Positions 1,725 to 57,985 of a stretch of DNA of 64,000 nucleotides are shown piece by piece; the first letter of the stretch is position 1, and every line of letters starts with the position of its first letter. The translations under genes and the position numbers were made by a program. Under the pieces are notes generated by a model. That model saw only the letters and a list, made by a program, of their open reading frames with translations, had not been told where the DNA came from and made no database searches. Source of the DNA: a virus; the UHGV virus genome UHGV-0113858; one strand, 5' to 3'.

Positions 1725-1884
1725 AGTTCGGGCAACAAGGTTCCTTAATCCGAAGCTGGTCGGGAGCCTTTACAGGAGCATCTTTAAGGTTATAATTAGA
1801 AAAACATCTCGCACATACTACAACCTTGTCAGGAATTTCCATTTCGAACCAAGGAAGGCCATTTAATTTTTTCGTAATGATCAT
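1699..1884 (-). CDS. small zinc-ribbon protein (61 aa)
   Basis: CARC...CCPNC gives two CxxC pairs. Confidence 0.45.
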   Translation of the reverse strand: MIITKKLNGLPWFEMEIPDKVVVCARCFSNYNLKDAPVKAPDQLRIKEPCCPNCGFKWYLS

Positions 1885-2390
1885 AATGTAGCCAACATGT
1901 TGATCGCTTCGTGGTGTTCTTTCATCTTTGTCAGACGAAGATACATGTCATGATACTTACGAACACGTAACAAATCCTTATCTGTCAGACCTTTCAGACG
2001 ACGAACATCGGAGTTATGGCGCAGGTCTGCAAGCTTCACACGTACCGCATCATAGTTTTGGGCCAGGCGGTTAAAATACTCTTCCGGTGTCTGATTAGGG
2101 GTTTTCGTCAGAAGAACCACAGCATCCTTCACACGGTTCGAGAAGCCTAGCAGAACCAGATCCGCAGCGGTAACATCGGTGTCTTCAACCACATCATGAA
2201 GCGCGGCGATAGCCATAAGCTGAAAATCATCAGTCTTCAGATAGTGCATTACCTTCAGCGGGTGAAGGATGTATGGGTTACCACCCTTATCTTTCTGATT
2301 CAGGTGGGCTTCTGCTGCAATTTTGATCGCCAGCGCCAATTCCTGGGCCGGACTTAAAGCTTGAATACAACTCTTGTCTGTTGATACCAT
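1881..2390 (-). CDS. HD-domain phosphohydrolase, SpoT/RelA-N-terminal-like ((p)ppGpp / small alarmone hydrolase-like)
   Basis: H..LHP...AALHDVVEDT signature of the SpoT-type HD hydrolase domain. 169 aa. Confidence 0.65.
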   Translation of the reverse strand: MVSTDKSCIQALSPAQELALAIKIAAEAHLNQKDKGGNPYILHPLKVMHYLKTDDFQLMAIAALHDVVEDTDVTAADLVLLGFSNRVKDAVVLLTKTPNQTPEEYFNRLAQNYDAVRVKLADLRHNSDVRRLKGLTDKDLLRVRKYHDMYLRLTKMKEHHEAINMLATL

Positions 2391-3415
2391 TTGACAGCTT
2401 CCTCTAGGTTAAAGGGTTTTATGTTCAGTCTATCGAAAGATTTTACGTTGTCAAGCCAAAATTCATCTTCATACCCTGCGATCGACATCATCATCAGTTC
2501 TTCCTCTGTCGGGGAGTCCCCCTCCATCATACTCTGTAGCTTGGGGTCATATTCCAAGTGGAACATTGTTTCTTTCGGGGAACAAACGAACATTGCCTTA
2601 CGTGCCTTATTAGCGATCTTTCTGTTCATGATGTTGATAACAGAATGATTTATTTGGCTACAAATACGATCTAATGCGGAAGGCTCAAGATAGTCAGAGT
2701 AAAGAACCAAATCACCACTGATGAGGCTTACATTTTTAAGGGTTAATCTCTCCCCATTATGGGCCATCCAAGATTGGATAGGGGCATTTTTTTGATAACC
2801 GGTGTATTCGACAACCAAACGAAGAGCAAGAGTATCCCTTGACATCCCCACCAAAAGCTGCTTTATACACTCAAGAAAATACTTAGTACGGTAGTTAAAA
2901 TTGCAGAACCCACCAAGAAATGCTTCACCGCAACCGTGACTATAAATATTGATGGAGATTGTTTCTACAAAGCGATGTTTCCAAGGATCATCACCCGTAA
3001 TATGTGATTTGTGGCCTATTTCCATACGTGAAACATTTAGCTTCTGATTCATATCAGAACCATACTCCCGGACATCACCGGAATGCCATTGCCAATAAAA
3101 AGGGCCACCATGAGCCGGGAGTTTATGGAGACATGACAAAAATATGTCCAATATGGGGTTTGAATCCTGTACCCCTTGGAGATAATCTCTAAAGCGGGTG
3201 ATGGGATTGTCAACAGATCTGTCCCTCTCAAAAGTTGAAAGAAATCTCTCTTGAGCAGCCTGCTTCCCTTGTAACAACTTGTCTATGAAATCCCGCTCCT
3301 CATTCCAAGTATAAGTATAGTTTGGTTTTACATTAATATCTACCTTGCTCATAATCTCACTTACCCTCTTATACAAATAATGAACAAAGATACACCGCCA
3401 CTTTTTAGAAATCAA
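2354..3415 (-). CDS. hypothetical protein (353 aa in track; that start is TTG. ATG MSKVDIN near 3349 with SD GAGGGTAAGTGAG is more likely)
   Basis: Long ORF. I checked the track start codon and it is TTG. Confidence 0.5.
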   Translation of the reverse strand: MISKKWRCIFVHYLYKRVSEIMSKVDINVKPNYTYTWNEERDFIDKLLQGKQAAQERFLSTFERDRSVDNPITRFRDYLQGVQDSNPILDIFLSCLHKLPAHGGPFYWQWHSGDVREYGSDMNQKLNVSRMEIGHKSHITGDDPWKHRFVETISINIYSHGCGEAFLGGFCNFNYRTKYFLECIKQLLVGMSRDTLALRLVVEYTGYQKNAPIQSWMAHNGERLTLKNVSLISGDLVLYSDYLEPSALDRICSQINHSVINIMNRKIANKARKAMFVCSPKETMFHLEYDPKLQSMMEGDSPTEEELMMMSIAGYEDEFWLDNVKSFDRLNIKPFNLEEAVKWYQQTRVVFKL

Positions 3416-13972: not shown

Positions 13973-14002
13973 TTGACACCAGGCCCGGAAAGGGCCTATA
14001 AT
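13973..14002 (+). promoter_or_regulatory. sigma70 promoter TTGACA-N18-TATAAT with a GC hairpin (ggccc-ggaaa-gggcc) in the spacer
   Basis: Seen directly in the sequence. Confidence 0.6.
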
Positions 14003-53699: not shown

Positions 53700-54829
53700 A
53701 TAACCCCCACACGGCGTAACTCGCTTGAAAGGGTTGTCTTATCATTTGCAGAACGTTTCATGTAGACCATCTGGAAGATGATAGATGCCCACTGGCCTGC
53801 ACTCATTTTCCGTTGTGTGCCGTCCCACGAAGTAAACTCAACACCGTTCGGGAACCAGGTTTTATACTGGTTAATGATCGCTTGCCACATGGATTTCTCA
53901 TCCTGAAGGTGTCCGATCAGATTGAATGCCGCCGTATCACCGAAACGTCCAGCGATATCGAAACACTGGTAAGGCTTGATGTTATCTGAACTGTCACCGC
54001 AAAGCATCTGGTAACCGAAGAACTTACGCCCCCATCCCTTGACCTTACTACCTTCCATCCAGATCTCTCCCATCGAATCGTCGATCAACATAGGGATCGG
54101 GTGCTTCCATGTCTTCTCTTCTGAATCGCGCATAGTATCGAAGATAAGCCCAGGGTTTCCTTTCTGGTCTTTATCAAACGATGCCACGATGTAGTTGAAC
54201 TTCCCGGTCTTCTGGTAATTCTCCCACCCCATATAAGCAAGAACAGACAGATAGTCATCTGCTTCAACACCATTGATCACCTTAGCGTTATACTTCCGGG
54301 TAACATAATCCCTTGTTTCCTGAAGAAGGAGTGGGCGTAATGTATCCTCACGATTACCCTTGTAACGCTCTGGAGCTGGGAGCATAAGGCGGAAGTTACC
54401 CTCACCACCAAGTACACCCATCCCTGTATTGCTTTCCATCTCAAGGTGTTCAAAGATAGCATTGATCTTTGTCTTCAGGATATGAAGGCAGTTTTCTACA
54501 GGTTCCGGTTCCTGAATGTCTTTAATCGTGAAGTCATCCCTACCCCACGGTACAAACACTCGGCCTTCGGCCTTTGCCTTCGCCTCCATGTTCATGTTTT
54601 GGTCTTTGATCCATCCACCGACAACTTTCTTTGTCGATCCCCAAAACTCAGTCCTGTTTTTGAAAATCTTTGTTCTTCCAGACTCAATGTGAGTGACCTC
54701 AATTGTACGCTTTTCAGCACCAGCGGCTGATACAAAGCATGTCTGGTCGAGATCCAAAGCTAATACGCAGTCTTTTGTGACTTTATTTTTCCAATCTTTA
54801 TCATACGGATATCCCACTAGCCCTCTCAA
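53696..54829 (-). CDS. hypothetical protein with N-terminal HAD-like DxDxT motif (377 aa)
   Basis: CVLALDLDQTCF. Confidence 0.45.
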   Translation of the reverse strand: MRGLVGYPYDKDWKNKVTKDCVLALDLDQTCFVSAAGAEKRTIEVTHIESGRTKIFKNRTEFWGSTKKVVGGWIKDQNMNMEAKAKAEGRVFVPWGRDDFTIKDIQEPEPVENCLHILKTKINAIFEHLEMESNTGMGVLGGEGNFRLMLPAPERYKGNREDTLRPLLLQETRDYVTRKYNAKVINGVEADDYLSVLAYMGWENYQKTGKFNYIVASFDKDQKGNPGLIFDTMRDSEEKTWKHPIPMLIDDSMGEIWMEGSKVKGWGRKFFGYQMLCGDSSDNIKPYQCFDIAGRFGDTAAFNLIGHLQDEKSMWQAIINQYKTWFPNGVEFTSWDGTQRKMSAGQWASIIFQMVYMKRSANDKTTLSSELRRVGVI

Positions 54830-55317
54830 TCTTTACTCAAATACTCGTCCAAATACCGGACATCCAATTCCCACTTTTCGCGCTTGCTTCGTTCATGATA
54901 CAAATCAAACGCTTCCTTAACATATTTCTCTGCCACAGGGCGACTAACTTCATTCACTCTCATAAAGTGACGAAGGGCAATTTCACCACGCCCACGGATC
55001 CCTGCCAAACCAATATGCTTGACTTCATGACAGGAAGGACATAGCGCGATTAGACCTATCAGAGTTATCTTACCGTCTCCGAAATTCCACTTCTCATGGC
55101 ATTCAACAGGGTGTTTTGTTCCTTTGCCCCCGCAGATTTCACATCGATAATTGGCCTTCGCATAACACTTCTTTCTGACAACATCCCACTGGGCTTTGGG
55201 GAGACGAGATCGGAGATTAGTAAACCACGCGGTCTTTGGAACTAGTTCAATCTCTAATTTCAAATCACCTCCACGTTGCAGCAACAACAATATCAATAGC
55301 TCGTTCCCAGCACTCAC
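54826..55317 (-). CDS. HNH endonuclease (track start is GTG)
   Basis: CEICGGKGTKHPVECHEKWNF...CPSCHEVKH. Zn-finger HNH. Confidence 0.6.
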   Translation of the reverse strand: MSAGNELLILLLLQRGGDLKLEIELVPKTAWFTNLRSRLPKAQWDVVRKKCYAKANYRCEICGGKGTKHPVECHEKWNFGDGKITLIGLIALCPSCHEVKHIGLAGIRGRGEIALRHFMRVNEVSRPVAEKYVKEAFDLYHERSKREKWELDVRYLDEYLSKD

Positions 55318-55770
55318 CGAGAAGATTCAAACCACGCCAGTTGGTTGGGTCATCGATACGTGTGTCATATTCGTTTAATTTAACACCCCAGATGGCATCA
55401 TAAGGGGAGGCTTCCACAAACTTACGCCCAGCATCTCGATGCCCAAGAGCAGCTTCGAGAACAGATCTGTTGGCCTTCATTTTCAATACAAGACCTGAAG
55501 TCACTATATCCATTCTATTTTCTTCCCAGACGCTGTTGTCGAAACCTTTTACCTGACGACCAAGAGCTTTGGCCTCATTAGGGTTATCAACCGTAGCGAT
55601 ACGGGAAGCAATTTCTTTGTCATCGAAGAGCATTGCCTTCTGGAACATCATGTAATGTTCTACAGTGAAAAACTCGTAACCACCACAACGAATAGGAATA
55701 ACTTGGCGGTAGTGATTACTGAACATATCCCGGTAAGTGAAGAAAAAGACGTATTTATCAGTTACTCGCA
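55265..55770 (-). CDS. NADAR (YbiA-like, DUF1768) domain protein; SD-supported start MRVTDKY near 55770
   Basis: YEFFTVEHYMMFQKAMLF...AIWGV NADAR signature. Confidence 0.6.
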
Positions 55771-55778
55771 TTATTCCC

Positions 55779-55973
55779 TCAATGAAATGTTTTCTTACTT
55801 GGACAAGAACCAGCGCCATCTTTTGTTACAGTCTCTGTTCGATGACCGTCGCTGTAAACGCAGACCTTAGAGCTGCCGTTGGTATATTCATCAACCAAAT
55901 CGAGAGTGTTTACAGTTGCGAATACCGGAGAAGAGAGCAGCAATGCTGCGATAAGAATTTTTGTGCGGATCAT
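55779..55973 (-). CDS. small exported protein with signal peptide (64 aa)
   Basis: MIRTKILIAALLLSSPVFA cleavable-type leader. SD AAAGGAGATACACAATG. Confidence 0.5.
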   Translation of the reverse strand: MIRTKILIAALLLSSPVFATVNTLDLVDEYTNGSSKVCVYSDGHRTETVTKDGAGSCPSKKTFH

Positions 55974-56035
55974 TGTGTATCTCCTTTTGTAAGTAGAGAC
56001 CCGATGATACTAATCACCGGGCCTTTTGTCAACCT

Positions 56036-56926
56036 TTACTTACCTGCTGGCAGATTTACGAAAGGTACTGCACCGTTGCCACCCATAATGGTCGGGGTTT
56101 TACCGTCCCACTTGTTGATCGCTTCCAGTTGCATGATTTCAGGGTTCTTACGGAGAGCATCACCACGCAGTTGGATGGATTCTGCTTCACCTTTTGCCAG
56201 AGCTACTTTAGCATCTGCCTGGCCCTGAGCTTGCAGTCGCTGGGATTCTGCTTCACCGCGAGCTGCTTCAATTTGTTTCTGAGCTTCAGCTTTAGTCTGC
56301 TGGATTTCGTTTTCACGCAGCAGCGCTTTCTGAGTCGCTTCGATCTTAGCGTTGATGGACGCAGTTACCTGAGGAGGATAACCAAGGTCATCAGTGTAAG
56401 ACAGTTTCACAATAATGATACCTACCGGATCAAGTTTCTGCTTCAGCGTCTTGGTCACTCGGTCCAGAAGCTGAGATTTACCATCACCAGCAAGTGTACC
56501 AATATCCATCGTACCAGCTTCTTTGATCAGCGCATCAGAGATGTTCTGACGGATGTTGACATCGGTAATCTCTTGGACGCCTTTACGGTAGGTCTGGAAG
56601 ATCTTGGTAACCTTGGAGCGGTCAACGTAATACTCAACACCGATCTTTGCAGTAACCGTCATAGAATCTTTGGTCTGGAAGTTAAACGGTTGTTCGTAGT
56701 TGTTCAACTGGTTAAACGTCGGGAACTGATAGATCTCTTCGTTCCAGGTTAACCAATACTTACCAACGCCCACTTCTTGCTGCTGAACGCCTTTCTCATC
56801 ACCATACAGGTCAACCTTAACACCCACATAACCCGCCGGAACAGTTGCACGTTCACAACCAGTCAGACCAATTGCACCCAGGGCGATCAGTCCAGCAAAT
56901 ACTACGCGTTTGATATTCTTAAGCAT
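56036..56926 (-). CDS. SPFH/band-7 (stomatin/prohibitin/HflK-C family) lipoprotein
   Basis: Lipobox LTGC after a signal sequence. SPFH core. C-terminal coiled coil AQKQIEAARGEAESQRLQAQGQADAKVALAKGEAES. Confidence 0.7.
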   Translation of the reverse strand: MLKNIKRVVFAGLIALGAIGLTGCERATVPAGYVGVKVDLYGDEKGVQQQEVGVGKYWLTWNEEIYQFPTFNQLNNYEQPFNFQTKDSMTVTAKIGVEYYVDRSKVTKIFQTYRKGVQEITDVNIRQNISDALIKEAGTMDIGTLAGDGKSQLLDRVTKTLKQKLDPVGIIIVKLSYTDDLGYPPQVTASINAKIEATQKALLRENEIQQTKAEAQKQIEAARGEAESQRLQAQGQADAKVALAKGEAESIQLRGDALRKNPEIMQLEAINKWDGKTPTIMGGNGAVPFVNLPAGK

Positions 56927-57083
56927 CAGTTTGTTTCTCCTCTTTGATTTTATACTCAGTCTTTACGTTTTCATCAACGTGGTCATCTACGATTTTTGCA
57001 ACATAAGATGCCGCAGACTTACCTTTGGACTTTGCCAAGTGCTGCAACTTTTCCCAAGTTGCCGCCTTCAAATTTAGCAACAT
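56919..57083 (-). CDS. small ribbon-helix-helix-like protein (about 54 aa)
   Basis: SD CTGGAGGAGATCGATAATG. Manual translation MLLNLKAATWEKLQHLAKSKGKSAASYVAKIV... Stop overlaps the SPFH ATG (ATGCTTAA). Confidence 0.4.
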   Translation of the reverse strand: MLLNLKAATWEKLQHLAKSKGKSAASYVAKIVDDHVDENVKTEYKIKEEKQTDA

Positions 57084-57283
57084 TATCGATCTCCTCCAGC
57101 GCTTGTCTTCGGAATGAAGACCTTACGCAACCAGTACCACACGACAACCGGGGCGGTGAAGACTAAGGCAAACCCGCCAATAACACTGATTGTATCTTTG
57201 GCAGAAACCAGAGTTGGGACACCAAACCCGAATACGACGCAGATGAAGACAAATAGGCCAACACCATTAAGGTAGTATTTCAT
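57083..57283 (-). CDS. small two-TM membrane protein (66 aa)
   Basis: TAATG coupling to the RHH-like ORF. Confidence 0.5.
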   Translation of the reverse strand: MKYYLNGVGLFVFICVVFGFGVPTLVSAKDTISVIGGFALVFTAPVVVWYWLRKVFIPKTSAGGDR

Positions 57284-57642
57284 TATTCAGTGTCCTCAGC
57301 TCCATCATCGGCTTCAGTCTGTGCAACATTGGGTGTTCCACGACCAAACAGAATATCTGCCTCGGTGAAGACTTCTTTTTCAGCCTCTAATGCAGCAGTT
57401 TTCTTTTCGGCTTCGAAGCGAACATCATACTCGCGCTTCACCAAACTATTGAAGAATTTTGGAGAGATATTATGCGTTTCTTTCTCCACAGAGCGAATAT
57501 CTTTGATCTGGTCTTTCAGATCAGCGATTTGACGCTGGAGATCAACCACTTCAGTTACGCTATCTTTCAGGCGTTTACGTTGAACCGGGTCAGACGGCAG
57601 AGAGGTGATCAGTTCGATTTTGATTTTTGGCATACGTGGCAT
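57283..57642 (-). CDS. coiled-coil protein (119 aa)
   Basis: Heptad-rich and charged. ATGA-coupled. Confidence 0.5.
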   Translation of the reverse strand: MPRMPKIKIELITSLPSDPVQRKRLKDSVTEVVDLQRQIADLKDQIKDIRSVEKETHNISPKFFNSLVKREYDVRFEAEKKTAALEAEKEVFTEADILFGRGTPNVAQTEADDGAEDTE

Positions 57643-57704
57643 ATATTGCTCCTTTGTTTGGTTTAGTGTGGTCAGTATAACCGTTCAGTTTTATTTGTCA
57701 AGCT

Positions 57705-57932
57705 TCAATTGTCAATGCCGACAATTTTTCCGCCCATTCTCTCGATCTGGTTGACATGAGATACCAGTGTGCCGAGTGTGCATTCATAAGCGTATTTCTT
57801 TACGCCACCCCAACGACGCTTCATCGTGAAGCGGATAACATGACGGGAAGATGCCCCGCGATTCATGATGGTCATTTTAAGGCGTTTAGCCAAGGCACCA
57901 ATTTCAGAATAATCAATATTTTCTTCCACTTC
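57705..57932 (-). CDS. hypothetical protein (about 75 aa; GTG start after AAAAGGAGA; track 57705..57989 runs through a promoter)
   Basis: Manual check. A consensus TTGACA-N17-TATAAT lies inside the track ORF's 5' part. Confidence 0.4.
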   Translation of the reverse strand, partial: EVEENIDYSEIGALAKRLKMTIMNRGASSRHVIRFTMKRRWGGVKKYAYECTLGTLVSHVNQIERMGGKIVGIDN

Positions 57933-57957: not shown

Positions 57958-57985
57958 ATTATACAGACCCCGATACGATTGTCAA
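57958..57985 (-). promoter_or_regulatory. consensus sigma70 promoter (minus) TTGACA-N17-TATAAT
   Basis: The reverse complement gives ttgaca atcgtatcggggtctg tataat. Confidence 0.65.

Follow-up and report, generated by a model that had tools for sequence, protein, structure and literature searches.

Recent work has revealed the SPFH scaffolds prohibitin, stomatin, flotillin and HflK/C to be cages that enclose membrane, and their role is debated. The virus genome UHGV-0113858, of which we analysed a stretch of 64,000 nucleotides (the window), contains an SPFH lipoprotein gene within a cluster of five small genes on the minus strand (positions 55,779 to 57,642), which raises the question of what such a protein does for a phage and which of its neighbours it works with. 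Our analysis points, with moderate confidence, to a functional unit of two genes, encoding the SPFH lipoprotein and a small membrane protein with two transmembrane (TM) segments, that has been passed among many phage lineages, rather than to the single five-gene functional operon proposed in a preliminary description of the locus. The two genes are as follows.

56036..56926, minus strand: SPFH (Band 7) lipoprotein of 296 amino acids, assigned from Pfam Band_7, phrog_200, an AlphaFold (AF2) model and Foldseek
57083..57283, minus strand: two-TM hairpin membrane protein of 66 amino acids, the SPFH partner, matching phrog_1130 at 1e-25

The 296-residue product matched Band_7 (PF01145) with 78.1 bits against a cut-off of 23.6 (E value 1.2e-21), its residues 28-215 covering positions 2-176 of the 176 in the profile, and it matched the 'lipoprotein' family phrog_200 at 2.5e-91. 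The AF2 model, built from 30 homologues (pLDDT 80), shows a signal helix, a beta-rich SPFH1 subdomain (residues 25-101) and an alpha/beta SPFH2 subdomain (103-177); the SPFH core is followed by a 75-residue helix (185-260) and then by a short helix and a flexible tail. The C-terminal tail of the protein carries a conserved K-W-x-G-x-x-P...P-F pattern. Foldseek aligned the model over its full length (250-310 columns) with prohibitin (3e-14), HflC/HflK (1e-13 to 1e-10), erlin, stomatin, QmcA-YbbJ and flotillin, thereby covering all SPFH cages of solved structure; the HflK/HflC structures 7vhq, 7wi3, 9cz2 and 9paw were among the top matches. The modelled SPFH fold is complete and has the full architecture of cage-forming SPFH proteins. 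Thus the domain match, the model and the structural search agree with the original description of this product as an SPFH lipoprotein with an LTGC lipobox and a long C-terminal helix. The best match to a curated sequence model was to hflK (TIGR01933) at 4.1e-12, but its score of 46.1 bits was below the cut-off of 159.4; hflC (TIGR01932) scored 25.1 against 134.4 bits, and PRK11029 scored 17.6 against 427. The product is a genuine SPFH protein that forms a subfamily by itself and is orthologous to neither HflK nor HflC. It belongs to the same PHROG family as the annotated phage SPFH proteins (phrog_200), which include those of the T4-like phages 44RR, Aeh1 and RB43, of Vi01-like and N4-like phages, MbpS of Kayvirus and gp002 of BcepF1.

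The N-terminus of the 296-residue protein consists of a basic segment (MLKNIKR), a hydrophobic stretch (VVFAGLIALGAIG) and the lipobox L21-T-G-C24, from which the protein is predicted to be exported and lipid-anchored at its N-terminus. A lipobox was found in 76 of the 113 unique N-termini of SPFH relatives, and about one-third of the close relatives have an uncleaved N-terminal TM anchor instead of the lipobox cysteine. The residue at position +2 is Glu in the window protein; within the family, Glu occurred 34 times, Asp 11, Gly 9 and Ser 8 times.

Both the phage protein and Escherichia coli HflK/C have an N-terminal membrane anchor and an SPFH domain that faces the periplasm (by prediction in the phage protein), and they share the same layout of SPFH1, SPFH2, a long coiled-coil helix and a C-terminal cap segment. 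However, the phage locus contains a single SPFH gene and no K/C pair. The phage anchor is a lipid, with neither an N-terminal TM helix nor a cytoplasmic N-terminal extension, and a separate two-TM protein accompanies the SPFH protein. We also considered whether the SPFH lipoprotein is a virion component and rejected this, as its counterpart in the Vi01-like phage Sajous1 was retrieved 3 times, against 196-311 retrievals for the most abundant assembly proteins (PMC10892097), a low count consistent with membrane carry-over.

The 66-residue product contains two hydrophobic helices with basic ends, connected by a nine-residue loop. Based on its charge distribution, it is predicted to adopt an N-in/C-in topology with a short periplasmic loop, V-P-T-L-V-S-A-K-D-T. 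The loop motif [VIL]-P-x-[LMF]-x-[SN] is the most conserved part of the protein, its proline being invariant, and the dN/dS ratio of the gene was 0.14-0.27. No credible Pfam or NCBIfam match was obtained with the 66-residue protein; the Pfam matches that it and its homologues did give (Phage_Coat_B and RseC) were spurious and driven by the TM segments. We rejected NfeD (PF01957) as the identity of the partner because neither the 66-residue protein nor four homologues matched it at E values up to 0.1, and also because a length of 55-67 amino acids leaves no room for the NfeD OB-fold domain. Nor did the protein show the marks of a class II holin: the Pfam matches included no holin family, and the gene is not in a lysis-cassette position. 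A single-sequence search with the 66-residue protein recovered 29 clusters among 1.84 billion representatives and is too insensitive to size the family. The relatives of the partner in the databases are stand-alone proteins of about 60-100 amino acids, never fused to another domain; a repetitive match of 1282 amino acids looks spurious and was discarded.

The preliminary description placed this peptide in the slot of a membrane partner, and the adjacency of the two genes across unrelated phage families strongly supports that placement. A two-TM homologue is encoded directly 5' of the SPFH gene, on the same strand, in Erwinia phage S6 (N4-like) and in phage P88 (P2-like). A two-TM gene occupies the same position in Salmonella and Serratia prophages (with a 4-nucleotide overlap), in phage BcepF1, in the N4-like phage Paxi and in most of 80 IMG/VR loci. 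At loci missed by the hidden Markov model, the upstream gene still encoded a two-TM protein of 55-67 amino acids with the same loop motif. When the SPFH proteins were dereplicated at 90% identity into 18 lineages, a homologous or architecturally equivalent two-TM gene was located immediately 5' of the SPFH gene in 16 of them, mostly with a 4-nucleotide overlap. The exceptions were Bruynoghevirus U47, which encodes a single-TM protein in the partner position, and the Kolesnikvirus vEam_PM_6, in which a two-TM protein with an L-P-D-F-M-S loop is encoded two genes further upstream. Distant phages encode other small membrane proteins in the same slot, such as the one-TM protein MbpV of Kayvirus and a three-TM protein of CcrRogue. 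These results suggest that the two-TM partner is obligate-looking for phage SPFH proteins.

Two further observations concern this junction. In Erwinia phage vEam_PM_6 (locus L005, positions 1875-3376), unrelated phrog_5180 and phrog_27922 open reading frames (ORFs) separate the two-TM gene from the SPFH gene, and this is an independent insertion at the junction that holds a 54-residue ORF in the window. In the Stx2a-converting phage Stx2_EH2201 (locus L094), an unannotated gap of 370 nucleotides (2631-3001) is found 5' of the SPFH gene, labelled 'serine protease', where the two-TM partner is expected.

The partner adjoins the SPFH gene as NfeD genes do, which is a likeness of arrangement and not of family membership. 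SPFH-NfeD operons (QmcA-YbbJ, YqiK-YqiJ, FloA-NfeD and archaeal stomatin-NfeD) share with the phage pair a small membrane-protein gene immediately upstream that is co-translated with the SPFH gene. QmcA and YbbJ form a cage of 26 heterodimers (PDB 8z5g; PMC13086221), which serves as our working model for a cage with scaffold and partner in a 1:1 ratio. In contrast to these operons, the phage partner of 66 amino acids has no NfeD match and no room for an OB-fold or a ClpP-like domain; moreover, QmcA is reported to face the cytoplasm, whereas the phage protein is predicted to be exported. The phage cassette is apparently a non-NfeD variant of the SPFH-partner operon, undescribed in the literature that we searched.

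The size of the partner, its predicted N-in/C-in topology and its short basic C-terminus are also those of class II holins. An alternative explanation is that the pair stabilises the membrane or sets the time of lysis. The SPFH scaffold would corral its holin-like partner, or a membrane protein of host or phage, and so hold the inner membrane in an energised state and prevent premature holes or abortive-infection triggers until late in infection. The best hint in this direction is from Staphylococcus Kayvirus, in which the genes for the SPFH protein MbpS and the 102-residue single-TM protein MbpV are located between the endolysin gene lysK and the transglycosylase gene tgl; MbpV 'resembles holins' according to its authors (PMC7150955). 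Cellular SPFH proteins are in addition linked to membrane stress tolerance in passages of two reports (PMC10434171, PMC13220708). However, the pair is found among early or replication genes, away from lysis genes, in the window phage and in most of the lineages that we examined. The partner matches no Pfam holin family, and a conservation peak in the periplasmic loop appears unlike the usual holin pattern. We therefore consider a role in lysis timing rather unlikely.

An SPFH module had been thought unusual in a phage. Our tblastn search found SPFH relatives in 693 of 50,697 phage records (approximately 1.4%), and Pfam SPFH matches in T4-like phages were tabulated as early as 2006 (PMC1524935); later genome papers also mention phage SPFH domains. 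The virulent carriers include Vequintavirinae, N4-like Schitoviridae, Bruynoghevirus, Ounavirinae, Kayvirus, jumbo phages and phiCbK-like phages, and the temperate carriers include the P2-like phage P88 and a Stx2a-converting phage. Distant relatives occur in haloarchaeal viruses, and close homologues on Salmonella and Serratia chromosomes lie within prophages. The P88-type cassette was matched in 714 of 5,426 complete E. coli genomes (13%). Among the 806 P88-type matches in E. coli, about half were on plasmids, of approximately 95-125 kb among the matches listed. These plasmid copies fit phage-plasmids, and the 107.6-kb 'Escherichia phage CMS-2020a' also has the gene.

The labels that public records give these genes disagree with one another; among them are 'serine protease', 'putative transposase', 'RIIB/RIIA lysis inhibitor' and 'B-cell receptor associated protein-related', and several look like mis-transfers. 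In KB57, a Klebsiella phage closely related to the window, the orthologue is annotated 'lipoprotein' and its neighbours 'membrane protein' and 'transcriptional regulator'. In agreement with the earlier statement that phage SPFH proteins have no assigned function, the literature that we searched contained annotations and speculation, and no experimentally tested function of a phage SPFH protein. The roles proposed in the preliminary description (FtsH modulation, superinfection exclusion and a membrane checkpoint) are likewise conjecture. A 2026 paper states that the reason for an SPFH gene in a phage 'remains unclear' (PMC13239085), and other papers have suggested an HflKC-like control of lysogeny or an aid to secretion (PMC7150955).

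The position of the pair in temperate carriers bears on when it acts. It lies in early lytic operons: cox and the replication gene flank it in P88, the genes for single-stranded DNA-binding protein and DNA polymerase flank it in the Salmonella and Serratia prophages, and in the Stx2 phage it is part of the pL-side region. Such positions favour a function in the infected cell over one in the lysogen. In the window, the surrounding genes are likewise early genes or genes for replication and nucleotide metabolism, and neither an integrase nor any lysogeny gene was annotated in the region examined.

One such role would be superinfection exclusion or envelope protection, in which the pair alters the periplasm or inner membrane and blocks DNA delivery by later phages or lysis from without. 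T5 Llp, phi80 Cor and T4 Imm and Sp are known analogues, of which Llp and Cor are early phage lipoproteins that act in exclusion. The SPFH protein is similarly a lipoprotein, and host-type promoters apparently drive early expression of the pair; the gene is an accessory one that moves horizontally and is found in virulent and temperate phages alike. In a Vi01-like phage, the SPFH gene adjoins a gene annotated as superinfection exclusion (PMC3220722). On the other hand, the SPFH fold occurs in no known exclusion protein, and temperate phages hold the pair in lytic early operons and not in moron positions expressed from the prophage. None of the five proteins of the cluster matched a model in PADLOC-DB at E values up to 0.01; on this result, we also rejected a known anti-phage defence system as an identity for the locus. 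A receptor-specific mechanism is ruled out by carriers with very different receptors and hosts. Overall, an exclusion or protection role is possible but improbable.

A lipoprotein of the outer membrane or of vesicles that acts on the environment, as a lysogenic-conversion or virulence factor, is another conceivable role. The E. coli '+2 rule' is that Asp retains lipoproteins in the inner membrane; the Glu found in the window protein is not known to be a retention signal, and P88-type copies are frequent in E. coli genomes, as described above. In Pasteurella, the prophage-encoded HflK/C-like protein PM0222 is reported to be secreted in outer-membrane vesicles; it is a TLR1/2 agonist and attenuates virulence when deleted (PMC9872710), although it is linked to the window protein by description only. 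Several findings stand against such a role: the window phage falls in Vequintavirinae with no lysogeny gene annotated nearby, the conserved partner is an inner-membrane protein, the relatives with a TM anchor are held in the inner membrane, and the pair lies in lytic early operons. We therefore regard a conversion or virulence factor as very unlikely for this locus.

Whether the pair belongs to a larger system depends on the three other genes of the cluster and on its transcription signals, which are as follows.

57283..57642, minus strand: protein of 119 amino acids of the T4 DsbA-like 'transcriptional regulator' family, matching phrog_639 at 4.9e-24
56919..57083, minus strand: probable ribbon-helix-helix (RHH) protein of 54 amino acids, between the partner and SPFH genes, matching phrog_13358 at 2.3e-38
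55779..55973, minus strand: exported peptide of 64 amino acids, matching phrog_4641 at 4.9e-31, with a signal peptide ending in VFA and two Cys in the mature part
57674..57701, minus strand: sigma-70-type promoter-like site, TTGACA-16-TATACT, 5' of the four-gene unit, 11/12 consensus and intergenic, of putative function
56004..56032, minus strand: sigma-70-type promoter-like site, TTGACA-17-TATCAT, 5' of the 64-residue peptide gene, 11/12 consensus
55997..56024, minus strand: 12-bp RNA hairpin found by folding, just 3' of the SPFH stop codon and within the next promoter

The 2-kb region is 98% identical to that of the Klebsiella phages vB_KpnM_NDO71 and KB57, which belong to the genus Mydovirus of the subfamily Vequintavirinae and are rV5-like phages of approximately 143 kb. 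All five minus-strand ORFs of the preliminary description were found at the coordinates given there. Each is preceded by a Shine-Dalgarno-like AGGAG/GAGGAG sequence 8-14 nucleotides 5' of its start and matches a PHROG family. In comparisons with orthologues in other Vequintavirinae, the proportion of nonsynonymous differences (pN) was far below that of synonymous differences (pS) for all five. Because of these three lines of evidence, we regard the ORFs as real; they are genuine genes under purifying selection.

The coupling of the five genes held for four of them. Read in the sequence, the genes for the 119-, 66-, 54- and 296-residue products are joined by serial start/stop overlaps (TAATG, TAATG and ATGCTTAA), whereas the gene for the 64-residue peptide is set apart from the SPFH stop codon by a 62-nucleotide spacer that contains its own promoter-like site and the 12-bp hairpin. 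Because of this spacer, the transcription unit is predicted to comprise the four overlapping genes, and the peptide gene to open a new unit. The hairpin had a folding energy of -19.4 kcal/mol (z -3.49), and 0 of 200 shuffled sequences folded equally well. A scan for consensus terminators did not call it, a T-run being absent; it may terminate transcription weakly or stabilise the four-gene transcript at its 3' end.

We counted 7 occurrences of the strict pattern TTGACA-N15-18-TATAMT in the window, where 0.07 would be expected. On the minus strand, sigma-70 promoter-like sites close to the consensus were located at three intergenic positions (57985, 57701 and 56032), and near-consensus sites of this kind are very probably, from their sequences, real promoters of the host polymerase. 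Such host-type promoters indicate early expression; the evidence for early expression of what had been called an early region consists of these sigma-70 consensus sites, and the timing is accordingly provisional. A hairpin was found in the spacer of two consensus sigma-70 sites, at 56004-56032 (GGCCCGGTGATTAGTATCATCGGGTC) and at 13973-14002 (GGCCC-GGAAA-GGGCC), both of them G+C-rich, and a hairpin within a promoter may be a recurring combined terminator/promoter design in the window phage.

Three genes border the cluster. Directly 5' of the four-gene unit is a gene with a GTG start for a 74-residue protein (57705-57929, minus strand; phrog_14443, of unknown function), which has its own perfect 12/12 consensus promoter at 57958-57985. 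On the 3' side of the exported-peptide gene, the ORFs at 55265-55771 and 54826-55317 (both minus strand) encode a NADAR-domain protein (Pfam, 1.2e-34) and an orthologue of a KB57-annotated HNH endonuclease. NADAR proteins are tied to ADP-ribose or NAD metabolism, and KB57 annotates a Sir2-like gene about 5 kb upstream; the NADAR gene carries the public label 'GTP cyclohydrolase II' in some records.

The 119-residue product, earlier labelled a coiled-coil protein, proved to belong to the T4 DsbA-like regulator family phrog_639. Its score with Pfam Phage_DsbA (PF11126) was 20.9 bits, below the cut-off of 25. The dN/dS ratio was 0.07-0.08 for this gene and for that of the 64-residue product, whose signal peptide was read from the sequence. 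Compared with the Seunavirus-type loci L012 and L016, the 119-residue allele of the window had a pN of 0.29, against 0.04 for the SPFH gene. Phmmer searches involving these near-identical genomes gave E values of 1e-38 and 3e-29 for the 119-residue protein, compared with 3e-74 for the SPFH protein. This much greater divergence points to independent exchange of the 119-residue gene and suggests allele replacement by recombination within the operon.

The 54-residue ORF overlaps the start of the SPFH gene by 8 nucleotides, as had been noted, and its pN was 0.10-0.33 against a pS of 0.74-0.92. In length and in sequence pattern, with a short strand-like segment at the N-terminus followed by two helices on either side of a G/K-S turn, it resembles Arc/CopG/RelB-type RHH regulators; unlike those regulators, it has no identified toxin partner or operator. 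RHH_4 scored 14.4 bits against a cut-off of 25, with matches in 8 of 14 family members (best E value 0.006), and RHH_5 and ParG were found below threshold in 5 (best 9.4e-5) and 2 of the 14 members, respectively. The RelB-like model NF048017 gave 22.6 bits against a cut-off of 50, and a profile search of the PDB with the 54-residue ORF returned nothing. The AF2 monomer was a two-helix structure (pLDDT 70) in which the N-terminus formed a helix rather than a strand. The top Foldseek list consisted mostly of RHH proteins (Arc, CopG, FitA and TacA-type), with E values of at least 0.9 and a root-mean-square deviation of approximately 1 Å over 28-42 residues, and one homologue is named 'predicted DNA-binding ribbon-helix-helix' by JGI. 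The RHH fold proposed earlier is therefore plausible, and the protein is probably an RHH protein, every match being below its curated or significance threshold. Of the families named in the preliminary description, Band_7 was thus found above its cut-off, RHH below threshold and NfeD not at all. With no toxin-like neighbour and a RelB-like score below the cut-off, we rejected a type II toxin-antitoxin reading of this ORF. The 54-residue protein may regulate the operon, and we saw no mechanistic tie between it and the SPFH protein.

The 54-residue ORF is conserved in related phages, being found in 66 phage records; among the matches listed, all were Vequintavirinae of 136-172 kb, comprising Mydovirus, Seunavirus-type phages (PVP-SE1, GAP31 and 4MG) and Erwinia phage Hena1-type phages (Henunavirus). 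It also occurs in equivalent metagenomic contigs of up to approximately 161 kb. Where present, the ORF always lies between the partner and SPFH genes; elsewhere, this junction is a direct overlap. The 119- and 64-residue genes accompany the pair only in Vequintavirinae that carry the 54-residue ORF, with genomes of about 145-150 kb in the genera Mydovirus, Seunavirus and Henunavirus.

These distributions bear on a five-gene system, in which the SPFH protein, its partner and the exported peptide would be controlled by the RHH regulator and the supposed coiled-coil protein or would work together with them. Four of the genes overlap behind one promoter, and the gene order is kept in Mydovirus, Seunavirus and Hena1-type genomes, down to approximately 50% SPFH identity. 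However, overlap joins 16 of 27 adjacent annotated gene pairs in the homologous stretch of KB57; start/stop overlap is therefore the norm in this genome, and coupling by itself says little about whether genes work together. The fifth gene follows the hairpin and a promoter-like site of its own, and the divergence of the 119-residue gene points to independent exchange. Outside the Vequintavirinae named above, the pair occurs without any of the three extra genes: in most lineages nothing separates the two-TM gene from the SPFH gene, and in vEam_PM_6 unrelated small ORFs occupy the same junction. A functional five-gene system is thus improbable, and the 119-, 54- and 64-residue genes appear, from their distribution, to be neighbours by descent within part of the Vequintavirinae.

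How the two-gene cassette might act can be outlined from its relatives. The pair would be transcribed from a host-type sigma-70 promoter, presumably early in infection. The SPFH protein, judging from its predicted monomer, may oligomerise into a dome like that of HflK/C or prohibitin, seated on the periplasmic face of the inner membrane. Its two-TM partner would bind it in a ratio of approximately 1:1, as YbbJ does with QmcA, and would contribute, as a separate protein, the ring of transmembrane helices that HflK/C build from their own N-termini; the complex could then fence off a patch of the host inner membrane in the early lytic programme. The location of the SPFH protein in the inner membrane is suggested, and not secured, by the partner being an inner-membrane protein and by the roughly one-third of close relatives with an uncleaved TM anchor, which can sit only in the inner membrane. 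The small periplasmic domain of the membrane protease FtsH sits inside HflK/C cages, and prohibitin and HflK/C, the top fold matches of the phage protein, are the two SPFH families of the same topology that cage FtsH-type proteases. Because these are the nearest characterised families of that topology, FtsH is the client that we favour, though only tentatively.

Several observations weigh against this outline. The residues of HflK that contact the FtsH periplasmic domain are R141, E142 and R185 (PMC13220708); the profile match of the phage protein to HflK spans only HflK residues 181-321, so that the FtsH-contact residues are unalignable. The family profile is approximately equidistant (E value about 1e-4) from QmcA, HflC, HflK and prohibitin. 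Distant SPFH relatives are carried by viruses of haloarchaea, hosts that to our knowledge are without FtsH. With Glu at position +2, the SPFH protein could be directed to the outer membrane, and PM0222, tied to the window protein by description only, was reported in vesicles (PMC9872710). The co-divergence of the partner and SPFH proteins was significant but moderate (Mantel r 0.36, a value reached by 23 of 5000 permutations), and co-divergence of adjacent phage genes can reflect mere linkage.

Taking these points together with the conserved adjacency of the two genes, we hold the cassette interpretation as a whole at roughly even confidence. Its most specific form is that of a phage-made minimal 'split HflK/C', in which a lipid- or helix-anchored SPFH dome and a separate two-TM fence subunit would capture a client in the host inner membrane early in infection (FtsH, or a component of DNA entry or of secretion), as a general takeover or exclusion device of virulent phages, temperate phages and phage-plasmids; this more detailed proposal is speculative, and we offer it with the same reserve as the choice of FtsH.

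That phages encode an SPFH lipoprotein was already annotated, and such genes are common; what has apparently escaped notice is the nearly constant company of a tiny two-TM protein. Labels such as 'serine protease', 'transposase' and 'RIIB' on these genes need correction in the public databases. Viruses appear to carry a stripped-down, mobile version of the SPFH scaffold with a partner of approximately 60 residues, and the pair could connect to the old lambda hfl/FtsH story. Since a phage must gain quickly and measurably from such a gene, the pair would be a tractable probe of how SPFH cages act on the inner membrane.

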